Position numbers and translations under genes: made by a program. Below, piece after piece: positions 43,611 through 57,557 of a stretch of 64,000 bases of DNA. The stretch is taken from the IMG/VR virus record IMGVR_UViG_3300009008_000003. One strand, 5' to 3'. This DNA is from a virus. The notes beneath the pieces were generated by a model. The model was not told the origin of the DNA. It was given only the letters and a program-made list of their open reading frames with translations, and made no database searches. The first letter of the stretch is position 1; each line of letters begins with the position of its first letter.

Positions 43611-43737
43611 TGCGGGCGACTGGATTTGAACCAGCGTTCCTTGGTCACAGGAGTAGAGATCGTCTACCCGTTTATCCGTGCCTGATCAGAACACGACCCG
43701 TACGCAGAAAGGAGTACTCCTACTATACCACGCCCGC
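43611..43737 (-). ncRNA. tRNA-shaped RNA with about 57 extra nt in the anticodon arm
   Basis: GCGGGCG/CGCCCGC acceptor, GUAU/GUAC D stem, GCUGG-UUCAAAU-CCAGU T arm, CCUU/AAGG stem enclosing two hairpins. Confidence 0.8.
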
Positions 43738-49851: not shown

Positions 49852-49964
49852 AGCCCGCAGCGAGACTCGAACTCGCAACCTAGGGAGTATACACCTCCGG
49901 CTGCGATGCATGGGTTGTGTACGTTAATAAGACTCCCCTGTTCTACCAATTGAACTATACGGGC
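49852..49964 (-). ncRNA. tRNA-shaped RNA with about 40 extra nt in the anticodon arm
   Basis: GCCCGUA/UGCGGGC, GUUC/GAAC D stem, canonical T arm, GGGGAGU/ACUCCCU extended by GUACAC/GUGUAU. Confidence 0.85.
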
Positions 49965-49969
49965 AAAAG

Positions 49970-50143
49970 GGCAAACGACGAGATTCGAACTCGCACTTTT
50001 TAAGCGGTCTGTTACCCGCAGGGACCCGCATATGGGACTTAAATTCCTTAACCGCTTTCCTTCAGCTAAGACTTGCCACCTATAAGCTTTCTGCGAACGC
50101 ATAGCTTATTCTATTCACTCTGCCAATTTAAGTTACGTTTGCC
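49970..50143 (-). ncRNA. tRNA-shaped RNA (His-like G-1:C73) with a large multi-hairpin central domain
   Basis: GGCAAACG/CGUUUGCC, ACUU/GAGU D stem, GCGAG-UUCGAAU-CUCGU; internal UAAGCU/AGCUUA and AAGCGGU/ACCGCUU helices. Confidence 0.8.
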
Positions 50144-50147
50144 ATAA

Positions 50148-50266
50148 AAGGGACAGAAGGACTCGAACCCACATTCTCCAGAAAGCGGTACTCATACTAT
50201 AGACGGGCCCGCCCATGGTCAGCAGAGTCCTACCCTCCGGTGTTTTACCAATTAAACTACATCCCT
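50148..50266 (-). ncRNA. tRNA-shaped RNA with about 46 extra nt in the anticodon arm
   Basis: AGGGAUG/UGUCCCU, GUUU/AAAC D stem, CCGGA/UCUGG stem enclosing 53 nt. Confidence 0.8.
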
Positions 50267-50295
50267 GCGAATTGTAGCACGCAGCTACAATTCAT

Positions 50296-50469
50296 CAACC
50301 AGTGTGCTTTTACGCCAAAGACGGTAGGAAGACGCTCCTTACCCGCGGACCTCACTACGTCTTTTTCCTAGGAGGCTGCTTTTAACATACCGCTACATCA
50401 CAGAGTTGCTATGCATATGTGTGTCGTCACTCTTTAAATGTGGCTGCTTCTAAGCCAACATCCTGGTTG
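50296..50469 (-). ncRNA. RNA resembling the 23S rRNA L11-binding domain (H43/H44) with a ~113-nt insertion
   Basis: CAACCAGGAUGUUGGCUUAGAAGCAGCCACAUUUAAAGAGUG...GCGUAAAAGCACACUGGUUG; the ends pair CAACCAG/CUGGUUG. Confidence 0.8.
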
Positions 50470-50471
50470 AT

Positions 50472-50843
50472 TTAATAATGACGTTTTCTGTGGCAGTTAG
50501 CACAAAGAAGAATACATTTATCTAATTCTTTTTTGATAGATTCTAGGCTTTTAGAAGTTTTACTTATAGTAAAATCCTTATCTCCTTTTATATGATGAAA
50601 ATCATATATTGCTTTATTTTTATCTCGGGTGCCGCAGTCTTGACATTTACCGCCAAGATATTCAACTGCCTGTGTTTTTATAAGTTTTCGTCTTTTGCTC
50701 CCATACTCTAAACGACATGTTTTACAATAAGAATCTAAATATTTCCATATTTGTCCATTTTTACCGCGTTGTTGTTGAGAATAGAAGGATGCACTGGGTT
50801 TTTTCTGCTTACATTTTTTGCAGGTTTTTTCTTTTTTAATCAT
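50472..50843 (-). CDS. HNH endonuclease
   Basis: CKKC, YCKTC, CQDCG, DFHHI, LLCANCHR. Confidence 0.85.
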   Translation of the reverse strand: MIKKEKTCKKCKQKKPSASFYSQQQRGKNGQIWKYLDSYCKTCRLEYGSKRRKLIKTQAVEYLGGKCQDCGTRDKNKAIYDFHHIKGDKDFTISKTSKSLESIKKELDKCILLCANCHRKRHY

Positions 50844-50848
50844 ACATT

Positions 50849-50877
50849 AATATAGCACATTAATGAGTGATTGTCAA
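50849..50877 (-). promoter_or_regulatory. sigma70 promoter; likely leaderless start at the HNH ATG
   Basis: TTGACA-17 nt-TATATT, with the -10 ending 6 nt before the ATG at 50843. Confidence 0.75.
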
Positions 50878-51000: not shown

Positions 51001-51390
51001 TTATTCCACAATTTTTGCTTTAAGCTCTTCATAGGTGAGATTATGATATGAACGCTGGTGTGTCACAGGATCGACCACGACGAATACTATTTTATTTATT
51101 TTACATATTTCTTTTTTAGTGGTCATGTTACGAACCATACATTCGATGGTAATCGAGCTATTACCCACCTCGACGAGATCACATCCAATTTCGATAAGAT
51201 CGCCCTTACTTGCGGGTGACACAAAGTCTACTTCAGATATGTACTTAGTGACAATAGAGTTAATGCCTGTTTTTGACATTACCCACACAGCCGCTTCCTC
51301 GTCAAGCCAGCTTAATAACCGACCGCCGAATAGTGTTTCGTGACTATTCAAGTCACCTGGCTTAATTAAATGCACCGAACGATATTCCAT
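51001..51390 (-). CDS. Acyl-CoA thioesterase (hotdog fold)
   Basis: PGDLN...LFGGRLLSWLDEEA, VT......F..P...GD. Confidence 0.9.
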   Translation of the reverse strand: MEYRSVHLIKPGDLNSHETLFGGRLLSWLDEEAAVWVMSKTGINSIVTKYISEVDFVSPASKGDLIEIGCDLVEVGNSSITIECMVRNMTTKKEICKINKIVFVVVDPVTHQRSYHNLTYEELKAKIVE

Positions 51391-52676
51391 TAATCCGTCC
51401 TTTCGCCTTCTTCGTGAACGCGTTTTAGTGTTGGGAATCTTAATGAGGGTTTACCTGTTTTCGCATCTTTACATTCTTCAAAATATTTAACCGTTATTTG
51501 TTTTCCAATAAGCTGCTCTGGGTGATAATAGTATTGTACACGTTGGTCATGAGACCAACCGGACCCTACCCCTACTTCGTTTTCTTTGTACATAATAATA
51601 GCCTTTGTCATACAAAGAATTTCTTCTTCGAGCCCAGATTGCTGGCTTATAATACGGAATGGCCCTGTTTCTACACTAACGACTTTAAATTCATCATCTT
51701 TAAATTTCTTTAGTTTAAGAAGTTCATCTGTTCTCTTACCTTTATAGGCAACATTTTTTCTGATCATGATGCCTTCCCAGCCAGACTCTTCGGCTTTATC
51801 CGTAAGCTCTTTAAGATGATTTTCATCTTTGATAAGCTCGTGATTAACTATTTTTATTTTTTTATTATTTAATACTTTTACCAACTTATCGTGCCGTTGA
51901 ACAAGAGTATCTGTAGATGCCGCGTTATCAAAATCCTCTGTACTTAACATATCGAATACCAGGAATTCTGGATTAGGGATAGTGTAATCTTTTTTACGAA
52001 CCAGTTTTACAATGGAAGAAAAATCTTCATCTCCATTTTCGTCAACCATGCAAAGTTCTCCATCTAAAACACAGTTTTTAAGCCCAAGCTCTTTTATCTC
52101 TTCAGCAAGTTTACCAAGAGTTGTAAAAGGTTTACCAGTACGAGAATAGAACAAAGTGTTTCCTCCAGCGTCTATTTTAGCTATACACCGTACTCCGTCC
52201 AGTTTGCGGGAAGCATACCACCCATTTTTGTAATCTACCTTTTTCTTATGTTCCTCATATACTTTAGCAAGAGTTACTTTAAACTCTTTAATAGTATTTG
52301 GCCATACCTGGTTAATTTGCTTAATACCTAATCTAACCTTTAGATTTTTATCTAATATCATGTGGACTATATCGCCATATCCGTTGCAGCTTGCACAATA
52401 ATCATTTATAGTGCGATGAGCTTCATGACCACTTAATCTGCCACTTGCTAAATCATCCAACATTGCTGTTAGACTAACATAGCTATTTTCTGGGGTGTCT
52501 TTTATGTTAAGCTTTAGCAAATTTGCTGAAGTTATACCAAACTGTTTGTCTGGATTATGCGCGTACTCAAAGTATGTTTTTGTATCTGGATACTTAGCTA
52601 ATATTTTCTTCTTTTCGGTCATCGAATTAGTTGTATTTAATTCATCTAGACATGTTTTTAATAATTTTAAACTCAT
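51390..52676 (-). CDS. lig: ATP-dependent DNA ligase
   Basis: SRKLDGVRC, SRTGK, LDGEL, FDML, WEGIMIR, LLKLK, VGSG, LRFPT. Confidence 0.92.
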   Translation of the reverse strand: MSLKLLKTCLDELNTTNSMTEKKKILAKYPDTKTYFEYAHNPDKQFGITSANLLKLNIKDTPENSYVSLTAMLDDLASGRLSGHEAHRTINDYCASCNGYGDIVHMILDKNLKVRLGIKQINQVWPNTIKEFKVTLAKVYEEHKKKVDYKNGWYASRKLDGVRCIAKIDAGGNTLFYSRTGKPFTTLGKLAEEIKELGLKNCVLDGELCMVDENGDEDFSSIVKLVRKKDYTIPNPEFLVFDMLSTEDFDNAASTDTLVQRHDKLVKVLNNKKIKIVNHELIKDENHLKELTDKAEESGWEGIMIRKNVAYKGKRTDELLKLKKFKDDEFKVVSVETGPFRIISQQSGLEEEILCMTKAIIMYKENEVGVGSGWSHDQRVQYYYHPEQLIGKQITVKYFEECKDAKTGKPSLRFPTLKRVHEEGERTD

Positions 52677-52886: not shown

Positions 52887-53558
52887 TTATACTCCTAACT
52901 TATTTATTTTTCTTGGGTCCCACTTGGTCATCCAGTGAACCCCATCTTCATTTATCTCTTTTACAAACTCTGGGCGAACTATTTTGCCCTTCATTTGTTT
53001 ACGATAGTTCTTGACAACTATCCCTTCGCGCTCGTGATCTGTGCTGTAAGCAGATGGCCCTTCTACCAGGTCTTCTATCTCGGTAATAGAATCAACATAG
53101 CCCTCATAAAGCAAAGGCACCAGTTTAATTCCCAGTTCAAAACAGATTAGTTGTTTATCGTCCCTGTTTACAAATTTGCCCTCTTGGAAAATATCTATAC
53201 AGATAAACCAGTCAGGAAGATTATCATAGTATATATGATGAGTAGCCCACATAAATTCGCCATAGATAATTGTATTCTTTGGCATGTAATACGTCAGGGC
53301 TCCCCACCGCTCATTAGCCCACGCTTTCAATCGACCAAATTGTGGATGTTCTCCCTCGTCTACAAGTGAGCCGCGTTTTTGTAAACGAAAACCGTCTTTG
53401 GTAGCGATAATGCCAACGTTAGCACCATCTATTTTTTCTTCTACCGTTAAGTAACCGTTAAGAAGTTGTTTAACTTCTTTCTTGCTTAGCTTTCTTTTAC
53501 CTGAAACATTGTATTTATTTGTAGGTATTCGAAAAGTTTTTTCGTATTTTCTAAACAT
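52887..53558 (-). CDS. RNA ligase-family nucleotidyltransferase (Rnl2-like)
   Basis: EEKIDGANVG, YGEF, F.CIDIF, REGIVVK, KGKIVRPEF. Confidence 0.85.
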   Translation of the reverse strand: MFRKYEKTFRIPTNKYNVSGKRKLSKKEVKQLLNGYLTVEEKIDGANVGIIATKDGFRLQKRGSLVDEGEHPQFGRLKAWANERWGALTYYMPKNTIIYGEFMWATHHIYYDNLPDWFICIDIFQEGKFVNRDDKQLICFELGIKLVPLLYEGYVDSITEIEDLVEGPSAYSTDHEREGIVVKNYRKQMKGKIVRPEFVKEINEDGVHWMTKWDPRKINKLGV

Positions 53559-55455: not shown

Positions 55456-55475
55456 GTAAAATAATCTAAAACTAG

Positions 55476-55842
55476 TGGAGACGGCGGGAATTGAACCCGC
55501 GTCCATCAAAACCTTTAACCAAAGTCATTCACAGCTTAGTTAGTTTTTTACACTTTATTTAAAGACGCTAGTAACGCTTCACTAAACAACGCTCATTATC
55601 GTCTACTCCGAGTTGGTCTCCTCGGTTGTCACAGAGTGGATTTAAATTTGTATCGCCATTAAATCCCTATGGCTAGTCAGTTATTTTTACGCCACTATCA
55701 GTACCAACTAACAGGTCTGTAGTAGCGGGTAGCCCTCAGGCTGCCAAAGCGTAAGATTTATCATTTAAATTTTGGTAAGCCTATGACTAGGCTTATGCTG
55801 CACTTCGATCTCAAATAACGACGTCGAAACCAATTCGTCCCC
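55476..55842 (-). ncRNA. ssrA: tmRNA
   Basis: 5' GGGGACGAAUUGGUUUCGACG; 3' GCGGGUUCAAUUCCCGC-CGUCUCC-A with G3:U70; tag ...NDKSYALAA* at 55736-55768. Confidence 0.95.
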
Positions 55843-56666: not shown

Positions 56667-57557
56667 TTAAAAATTTCCATAATTCACCTGAAAGCAAGGG
56701 AGCCCAAGATCTTTACGCCAAAGATCAACTACTTGATCTCTATCATCAAGGACGAATTCAACAAAGTATTTATCCTTAATATGCTTCTCGTAAAGCTCAC
56801 GTTTAACAATCGAGTCTTTTCGCGTATCTCCCGCAGCTCTCATAAAAACCTTATCATATACTATTGCATTTTTATCAAGCCATTCTATGCTTGCATCTTT
56901 AGCTACTCCGTCCCGACCTGACAAGATTATTATGCTAATTTTATAACCTTCGAAAAAGGCTGCCTGCGCTACTAATGAGGCCACAGGTTCATTGACTTTA
57001 TCGTCGCCAACTTTATCCCAATCAAAAGGTCCACGTTGACCAGCAAACAATGCAAGTGTTCCATCCAGATCAACAAGTATAGCTGCAGGCAAAGAGTTAT
57101 CCTGCTTAGCAGCAAAAGAAGCTTCAGGTGTCTTTACATACTGGTCATGCATATCACGAATAACCTTTTCGCCTACTGAATTGGGTCGGCCAAGATCACG
57201 CTTAATACATTCATCAAGTGGAAGATCAAAATCTTTTACCTCAACTATAATGTTGGTACCTTGGACCTGGTTAAAGGTCTTAACTAAGCTTTGTATAGTA
57301 GTCAGGTGTGATGGGTGAAAGTTAGTATCATCAATGATAACACTTTTGCCATCAGACAATGCTTTGAGCATTAAATCGTTTCTGACCTGTTTGACAAATT
57401 TCTCATTGTCTCTGGACCAATGACTTACATCAAGCATAGCACGAAGATCATCCTTGTTTATCCGCTTATACCTCCCAGGATGAGCAGCAACCATCTCTTT
57501 AGCCCAAGTGGATTTCCCGGAAGCGGGCAACCCTCTTAGGAAATGTACTTTTCTCAT
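56667..57557 (-). CDS. pseT: Polynucleotide 5'-kinase/3'-phosphatase
   Basis: GLPASGKST, RINKDDLR, DLDGT, SGR, DDRDQVV. Confidence 0.93.
   Translation of the reverse strand: MRKVHFLRGLPASGKSTWAKEMVAAHPGRYKRINKDDLRAMLDVSHWSRDNEKFVKQVRNDLMLKALSDGKSVIIDDTNFHPSHLTTIQSLVKTFNQVQGTNIIVEVKDFDLPLDECIKRDLGRPNSVGEKVIRDMHDQYVKTPEASFAAKQDNSLPAAILVDLDGTLALFAGQRGPFDWDKVGDDKVNEPVASLVAQAAFFEGYKISIIILSGRDGVAKDASIEWLDKNAIVYDKVFMRAAGDTRKDSIVKRELYEKHIKDKYFVEFVLDDRDQVVDLWRKDLGLPCFQVNYGNF

Follow-up and report, generated by a model that had tools for sequence, protein, structure and literature searches.

A large marine phage carries a 178-nt non-coding RNA that rebuilds, outside any rRNA gene, the GTPase-associated (uL11/thiostrepton-binding) domain of bacterial 23S rRNA, hereafter the GAC. 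Its preserved GAC fold and functional loops, as read from the sequences of the element and its relatives, strongly support the view that it is a discrete RNA under selection. We put at roughly one half the probability that it is a stable, trans-acting mimic of the GAC, probably bound by host uL11, that acts as a decoy off the ribosome.

The element lies on the - strand of the window, by which we mean the whole stretch of 64,000 nt that was analysed. The window is taken from a 139.8-kb IMG/VR virus record (IMGVR_UViG_3300009008_000003) that is estimated to be 74% complete. Its sequence is present in four marine-metagenome DNA runs, all from one study, and a megablast search with 16 kb of the window returned no close cultured relative of the phage.

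A split copy of the GAC

Without its insert, the element is identical to the GAC of Salmonella 23S rRNA (E. coli numbering 1051-1108) at 54 of 60 positions, and a pattern that combines the two halves matches once in the window and not at all in 100 shuffled sequences. The - strand sequence and the 23S match reported in the first-pass annotation of this DNA are therefore both real. In Rfam, the 5′ half aligns to model positions 1096-1145 of LSU_rRNA_bacteria (RF02541) with 19.4 bits (E 7.6e-4), which does not reach the gathering threshold of 50, and full-length 23S context is absent. Rfam 15 has no dedicated family for the GAC mimic and gives the element no match other than this sub-threshold one of the 5′ half. 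Rfam detects no other rRNA within the window, in agreement with the earlier statement that the element is separate from any rRNA operon.

The GAC is rebuilt by a 5′ part of 43 nt and a 3′ part of 22 nt, which together supply the top of H42, H43 and H44 (Table 1). In the 5′ half, the exact H43 15-mer GGCUUAGAAGCAGCC is followed by CAUUUAAAGAGU, which comprises the 1082-1086 pair and GAGU. The 3′ half reads UUUG GCGUAAAAGC ACAC at 50319-50302, with A at position 1101 and GUAAAA as the H44 loop. Between positions 1090 and 1091, H44 is interrupted by 109 nt plus UUUG, 113 nt in total, just as the insert of about 113 nt had been described. The domain is closed by a helix of its own, AUCAACCAG/CUGGUUGAU, in which nine of nine pairs are formed. 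A closing helix of 7 bp had been recognised before; the helix is real and includes those seven pairs, but it is 9 bp long, so that the RNA spans 50294-50471. When the whole RNA is folded by free energy alone, the GAC fold is not obtained, and the z-score is only -2.28.

Table 1. Coordinates of the GAC-mimic RNA, its parts and its immediate surroundings in the window (23S positions in E. coli numbering)
Feature	Position	Strand	Basis
Sigma-70-like promoter site upstream of HNH gene and RNA	50849..50877	-	TTGACA-17-TATATT with TG, 11/12; consensus match only
HNH endonuclease ORF, 123 aa, stop codon abutting the RNA	50472..50843	-	Pfam HNH, E 0.0017, below curated cut-off
Whole GAC-mimic RNA, member of the phage split-GAC family	50294..50471	-	Covariance model R1, 117.8 bits, E 9e-35 (window sequence is in the R1 training set)
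Closing helix, 5′ strand (H42 top, about 1047-1055)	50463..50471	-	Pairs with 50294-50302; all nine pairs covary family-wide
H43 and 1067 loop (1057-1081, one base short at 1078)	50438..50461	-	15-mer 1062-1076 identical to 23S
UUAAA (1082-1086 pair), then GAGU (1087-1090, including A1088)	50429..50437	-	Family conservation and covariation
Accessory domain, 109 nt, between 1090 and 1091	50320..50428	-	Basal helix GACG/CGUC covaries family-wide
3′ hairpin of the insert with shortened GGUAAGG module (module 50337-50343)	50325..50370	-	Stem changes in relatives
UUUG linker of the three-way junction	50316..50319	-	UUUR before G1091 in nearly all members
H44 hairpin with 1095 loop (G1091-C1100), then A1101, C1102, A1103	50303..50315	-	Compensatory changes in the family
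Closing helix, 3′ strand (1104-1112)	50294..50302	-	Pairs with 50463-50471; family covariation
9-bp hairpin without U-tract, between the RNA and the next tRNA-like gene	50269..50293	-	Sequence reading
Downstream tRNA-like gene with 53-nt anticodon-arm insert	50148..50266	-	Rfam tRNA, 41 bits; no ARAGORN call

A family of split elements in large phages

A distant BLASTN search against cultured phages gave matches in unannotated DNA of large phages. In CBB, XacN1 and Aeromonas phage 4_4572, both halves of the element are present, 180-230 nt apart. Two independent pattern scans of viral sequences gave the same picture. With a 17-nt pattern of the 3′ half in IMG/VR, the 5′ half was also found in 97 of the 120 viral loci among the matches listed, 56-380 nt upstream. 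The second scan used a 5′-half pattern built to exclude contiguous 23S; a recognisable 3′ half follows in 87 of its 93 distinct matches listed, and the other six loci end early. Combination of both scans gives at least 163 distinct elements of the same split architecture, and seven cultured phages carry one. The first-pass annotation had suggested looking for this architecture in other phages, with an unconserved one-off rRNA fragment as the opposite outcome. The number of distinct elements, together with the compensatory changes described below, contradicts such a one-off.

The seven cultured carriers all score well with a covariance model (R1) built from 35 short-insert members: Milchi (Pseudomonas; 110 bits), XacN1 (Xanthomonas; 92.9), Kaldavass (Erwinia; 92.6), 4_4572 (Aeromonas; 91.3), CBB (Pectobacterium; 90.4), GAP32 (Cronobacter; 90.2) and XbC2 (Xanthomonas; 90.2). 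True 23S rRNA reaches only 55-61 bits under R1, whereas independent family members reach 79-124 bits; the training set of R1 includes the window sequence, and hence these independent members are the real test. The R1 search finds one copy only in the 139.8-kb record, and this copy is a mid-sized, ordinary member of the family.

In the records of the cultured phages, the locus is either unannotated or overlaid by small hypothetical ORFs. For example, CDSs for a "hypothetical protein" are annotated over the RNA in Kaldavass (our locus L244, 1231-1323) and Milchi (L246, 1228-1359); these are probably false gene calls. Separately, Paenibacillus phage Pd_22F (MZ092003.1 near 83.4-84.1 kb; L001 1380-2020) contains a contiguous run of genuine 23S in an unannotated region. 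This run scores 61 bits under R1, compared with 90-124 bits for family members; it lies outside the family and probably stems from host DNA or from an assembly artefact.

The family is rare in cellular genomes. Among the genomes of 185,579 prokaryotic species, the 5′ pattern occurs 34 times. Roughly 23 of the occurrences represent split elements, and most of those lie on MAG contigs assigned to a wide range of phyla; true 23S variants account for the remainder. One member (79.5 bits) is located on the chromosome of Acidithiobacillus sp. M4-SHS-6 (L224 3549-3849), within a cellular tRNA array in which 38 tRNA genes occupy 8 kb. Of the independent members, the highest score (124 bits) belongs to one in a prophage of a cultured isolate, Flintibacter muris DSM 110149 (L232 1115-1300). 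It is flanked by a tail-fibre gene and by a gene for a 730-aa fused kinase-phosphatase-RNA ligase, and no tRNA gene is found within 8 kb.

We could not find the phage split-GAC RNA described in the full-text literature covered, subscription journals lying outside it. The family appears to be new, with a prior publication being possible.

Conservation and covariation of the GAC fold

All four Watson-Crick types occur at pair 1051-1108 of the closing helix, and pairing fades beyond about 1047/1112; the domain is therefore discrete. Two further pairs covary in the 91 members among the matches listed, 1058-1080 (UA 39, GC 26, AU 15, CG 4) and 1082-1086 (UA 47, CG 26, AU 12). Bases critical for the fold and for uL11 are invariant, namely U1060, G1059, A1088 and G1071-A1073. 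Both U1060 and G1059 are found in 91 of 91 members listed and lie outside the motifs used for retrieval or column placement, within which 1062-1076 falls. The U1060-A1088 pair is likewise present in 91 of 91 members among the matches listed, U1060 being the independent observation here, as A1088 sits within the column-placing motif GAG[TC] (one substitution allowed). This pair is reported to be hydrogen-bonded by the C-terminal domain of L11 (PMC2175356).

Members listed from the 5′-half retrieval alone show compensatory changes in H44 (G1091U with C1100A, C1092U with G1099A) and in the closing helix (G1055A with C1104U), and only five of their recognisable 3′ halves lack A1095. A1067 is present in 83 of the 91 members listed and is replaced by G in six, so not every ligand of the 1067 loop can matter in all members. 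Thiopeptides had been named earlier among the possible ligands. A general role as a thiopeptide sponge is unlikely, because all seven cultured carriers infect Gram-negative hosts and because of the G at 1067 in those six members.

In an alignment of 35 sequences, compensatory changes were found in 17 of 24 pairs. With the structure imposed on this alignment, 91.5% of the cells are paired, versus 68% after shuffling. The covariation score is 0.579, compared with 0.14 for shuffled alignments; none of 500 shuffles scored as high, and slid controls gave 0.09-0.16. RNAalifold recovered the same helices unaided. The positions that vary in the family (1058/1080, 1082/1086 and 1097) are those written in lower case in the Rfam LSU consensus. 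Such family-wide conservation and covariation lend strong support to the idea, put forward in the first-pass annotation, of a selected stand-alone copy of the L11/thiostrepton domain.

The family also has a signature of its own, consisting of GAGU, A1101 and the UUUR linker. GAGU and A1101 occur in every member listed, and almost all members, among them the ones recovered with the 5′ half alone, have the linker before G1091. Gammaproteobacterial 23S, such as that of Salmonella, has GAAA and U1101 instead. The difference between the GAGU/A1101 signature and enterobacterial 23S argues for descent within phages and against repeated capture from hosts.

The accessory domain

Every member listed has an insert at the same site, 37-365 nt long. 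It is built on a covarying basal helix of 3-4 bp (first pair GC 50, AU 27, UA 10 in members among the matches listed) and is followed by UUUR; H44 thus becomes a three-way junction. In the window member, the basal helix joins the first four bases of the insert, GACG (50428-50425), with the last four, CGUC (50323-50320). The base of the insert had previously been assigned to AAAGACG/CGUCUUU. The family covariation moves it to the pairing just given; AAAGACG/CGUCUUU, or the closely similar GACG/CGUC, instead forms a hairpin within the insert. Comparison by eye with L156 and L059, the members most closely related to that of the window, shows compensatory changes of the hairpin stem GACG/CGUC to GGCG/CGCU and GGCA/UGCC. 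For the remainder of the insert, the fold is a prediction. A 3′ module, a small bulged hairpin that ends in GGUAAGG, occurs in 22 of the 91 inserts listed, usually 11 nt from the 3′ end of the insert. A pseudoknot of CUCCN with N′GGAG within the insert is possible from three sequences compared by eye, and we do not claim it.

Five of the eight listed members with inserts of at least 300 nt (L046, L065, L113, L123 and L138) carry a hairpin resembling the sarcin-ricin loop (AGUAC-NNNN-GGA with a covarying stem), and UUAA usually follows the hairpin. These long-insert relatives have the GAC and the sarcin-ricin-like hairpin together, and therefore both halves of the factor-binding site are copied in them. 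In the window member, the sarcin-ricin-loop motif is absent from the insert as well as from the rest of the window. A blastn-short comparison of the inserts with full 23S revealed no significant copy of another rRNA region, and the inserts match no Rfam family. About eight members listed (L011, L039, L051, L076, L077, L080, L102 and L110) have a second hairpin, 20-47 nt long, in H43 between A1077 and 1078.

Genomic context

The element is located in a dense - strand block of stable-RNA genes: besides a tmRNA, this block contains 17 tRNAs and a number of tRNA-like genes with inserts. On the same strand, a tRNA-Pro gene lies upstream; downstream, a hairpin is followed by three tRNA-like genes, starting 28 nt from the element. 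Rfam identifies tRNAs at 50148-50266, 49852-49964 and 43611-43737 (-; 41, 52.7 and 38.3 bits), which are 113-127 nt long with inserts of 40-55 nt in the anticodon arm; ARAGORN makes no call on any of these three. An additional tRNA-like stretch is present at 49970-50143. The tmRNA (tag DKSYALAA) is encoded at 55473-55842 (-), and around it are genes for an RNA ligase (52887-53558), a Pnkp with kinase and HAD phosphatase domains (56667-57557) and an ATP-dependent DNA-ligase-like protein (51390-52676). The tmRNA and these three genes form an RNA-repair set around the stable-RNA block. The HNH ORF next to the element is part of the context and lies outside the family. The strong promoter claimed upstream is present as a sigma-70-like site, a consensus match only, and co-transcription of the element with the downstream tRNA-like genes would be plausible.

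Across the family, a tRNA or tmRNA gene was found in 115 of the 173 loci listed, and in these loci the nearest one is a median of 16 nt away. In 106 loci listed, such a gene lies within 2 kb, and in every one of them its strand is that of the element. This close same-strand spacing fits release of the RNA by tRNA-processing enzymes. There is no conserved protein neighbour: BLASTP clustering of 1,590 same-strand ORFs, which remote homology may escape, produced no cluster present in more than 8 of 174 loci listed. The commonest neighbours are TerD, Pnkp, phosphoesterases, CCA-adding enzyme and macro-domain proteins. The record of the window and four complete carrier genomes yielded no phage uL11 gene, so that uL11, if involved, would come from the host.

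Macro-domain (PF01661) genes lie on the same strand, 0.3-3.3 kb from the element, in six of the 174 loci listed (L049, L109, L074, L075, L121 and L181). In CBB and GAP32, such a gene lies a long way from the element, and the 74%-complete record of the window has none. This linkage is a weak hint of a conflict involving ADP-ribosylation.

Possible function of the GAC mimic

The following scheme may account for these observations. A transcript of the tRNA type would probably run from the promoter through the HNH gene and the GAC mimic into the tRNA-like genes, and tRNA-processing enzymes would probably release the GAC-mimic RNA. Host uL11 would then probably load onto it. We consider this the most likely mechanism because the isolated 58-nt rRNA domain suffices as a binding site for uL11 and because the nucleotides that hold the GAC fold are all kept in the window RNA. 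The uL11-RNA particle would imitate the ribosomal factor-binding site off the ribosome, and the decoy could compete with ribosomes for whatever reads this site: uL11 itself, which is needed for RelA activation, a toxin or defence effector aimed at the GAC, or one of the translational GTPases. Taken one by one, these targets are less probable than a decoy as such. Sequestration of uL11 or interference with RelA is a minority option, the toxin or defence effector as target of the decoy is another of similar standing, and a trap for a translational GTPase seems improbable.

Some considerations weigh against a decoy. First, decoying an enzyme is an inefficient defence unless the RNA is bound much more tightly than ribosomes are. 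Second, sequestration of uL11 could harm the phage's own translation. Third, a simple decoy leaves the obligatory and highly variable insert unexplained. As a tentative idea, which we consider possible but hold with less conviction than the decoy in general, the uL11-loaded stable RNA may represent the factor-binding face of the 50S subunit as a "ribosome in pieces", consisting of the GAC and, in some lineages, the sarcin-ricin loop. It might then disarm immunity or toxins directed at the ribosome (for example, ADP-ribosyltransferases directed at H44), or capture a GTPase or RelA. If this idea is true, the family would be a new class of RNA-based counter-defence that works through imitation of rRNA.

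Among the alternatives, the one that survives best, although we doubt it, is a specific trap for a toxin or anti-phage effector that attacks the GAC and, in the case of the long-insert relatives, the sarcin-ricin loop: by sequestering or inhibiting an ADP-ribosyltransferase or RNase of this kind, the RNA would keep host ribosomes from being disabled during abortive infection. The bacterial toxin Tre23 ADP-ribosylates bases 1095-1098 of the H44 loop (PMC8661411), a target that lies in the copied loop, and, with five exceptions, the independently retrieved 3′ halves listed retain A1095. The neighbourhood of tRNA and RNA-repair functions (Pnkp, RNA ligase, CCA-adding enzyme and tmRNA) is consistent with such a trap, as are the macro-domain genes close to the element in six loci, although this last link is weak, given the absence of the gene from the window's record and its distance from the element in CBB and GAP32. 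The sarcin-ricin loop is a classic ribotoxin target, and a hairpin like it is carried by five of the eight longest-insert members listed, but not by the window member. However, no anti-phage defence system is known to be directed at the GAC, and a substrate decoy gives poor protection against an enzyme capable of turnover.

That the RNA imitates the factor-binding platform as a free-standing ligand of a translational GTPase (EF-G, EF-Tu, IF2 or RF3) or of RelA, and thereby retunes host translation or blocks the stringent response, is unlikely in our view. The GAC and the sarcin-ricin loop make up the docking site of ribosomal GTPases, EF-G binds oligoribonucleotide mimics of both, and some relatives carry both on one RNA. 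The bases of the loops that face the factors are largely conserved (A1067 in 83 of 91 members listed, A1095 with five exceptions). On the other hand, most members, that of the window included, have no copy of the sarcin-ricin loop, and the part of H42 that carries uL10 and L7/L12 is absent, since the helix below about 1047/1112 is not conserved. Moreover, trapping of factors would also slow synthesis of the phage's own proteins.

It is still less probable that the GAC fold, perhaps with uL11, is just a stable handle, comparable to a tRNA scaffold, for a variable insert that does the work. Consistent with a handle, the insert occupies an identical site in every member listed, the inserts are structured and partly modular (GGUAAGG in 22 of 91 listed, the sarcin-ricin-like hairpin in the longest), and the tRNA-like genes of the window have anticodon-arm inserts as well. 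However, the GAC halves are under much stronger selection than the inserts, whose lengths vary from 37 to 365 nt and which have no universal motif, and a mere scaffold would not need conserved functional loop bases.

The insert could also be taken for an intron, the removal of which, with ligation by, for example, the RNA ligases encoded nearby, would give a 65-nt mini-GAC. The junction is ambiguous by one G, with a U before it and a G at the end of the insert as in group I splice sites, and the window does encode an RNA ligase and Pnkp. We reject this very improbable reading, as inserts of down to 37 nt are far below the size of any self-splicing intron, no Rfam intron family matches at E values up to 10, and the conserved basal helix and UUUR are features of a three-way junction and not of a splice site; in addition, the ligase genes are not conserved as neighbours.

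Finally, it is hardly credible that the element is a decaying 23S fragment, acquired by chance or borne by the HNH gene as the first-pass annotation had offered as an alternative, or a cis-acting uL11-binding leader of a neighbouring gene. An HNH ORF does abut the element in the window, and leaders that imitate rRNA are known from ribosomal-protein mRNAs. However, capture is contradicted by the existence of at least 163 distinct copies, in which compensatory changes and a signature of the family are present, by the rarity of HNH and all other protein clusters (none in more than 8 of 174 loci listed) and by the different appearance of the genuine 23S captured in Pd_22F (contiguous, 61 bits versus 90-124), whereas a leader is contradicted by the lack of any conserved neighbouring ORF and by the position of the element, which in loci with tRNA genes is close to these (median 16 nt) and not ahead of a coding region, the next genes in the window being tRNA-like RNAs. 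The scaffold, intron, captured-fragment and leader readings are all weaker than the decoy reading.

The conservation of the element implies that, in the infected cell, something reads the GAC off the ribosome. The identification of this reader could expose an unrecognised layer of the conflict between phage and host over translation, with uL11 and the stringent response, a toxin or defence system, and a GTPase as the candidates. If unpublished, a functional centre of rRNA that is copied as a free RNA in hundreds of unrelated large phages would be a new kind of viral non-coding RNA. Direct tests are possible, as seven cultured phages grow on tractable Gram-negative hosts and a prophage is available in cultured Flintibacter. 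In addition, the family offers natural variants of a classic model of RNA folding and antibiotic binding, together with a permissive insertion site in H44.

Comparison with known systems

The closest known structure is the GAC of 23S rRNA itself, the 58-nt uL11/thiostrepton domain formed by the top of H42, H43 and H44. The phage RNA has the same helices, the same 1082-1086 pair and the same U1060-A1088 tertiary pair, and its conserved and variable positions coincide with those of 23S. Unlike the 23S domain, it lies outside rRNA genes, among phage tRNAs, and has a private closing helix that ends after 9-10 bp, without the part of H42 that carries uL10 and L7/L12. It also differs in its obligatory domain at 1090/1091, its UUUR linker and the A in place of U at 1101. 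The sarcin-ricin loop (H95 of 23S) has its counterpart in the AGUAC-GNRA-GGA hairpin found in inserts of long-insert relatives, but not in the window member.

Leaders of ribosomal-protein mRNAs, such as the L10 leader and the L1 site in the L11 operon mRNA, likewise mimic protein-binding sites of rRNA off the ribosome. However, they are cis-regulatory 5′ leaders of cellular operons and loose mimics, whereas the phage RNA is free-standing, encoded among tRNAs and nearly exact. In its genomic compartment, strand and tRNA-like spacing, the split-GAC RNA resembles a unit of the phage tRNA arrays, which have been proposed as cargo for anti-defence or for maintenance of translation. Phage tRNAs can replace damaged host molecules. 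As no exchange of an rRNA domain within a ribosome is possible, the logic behind the split-GAC RNA must be imitation and not replacement.
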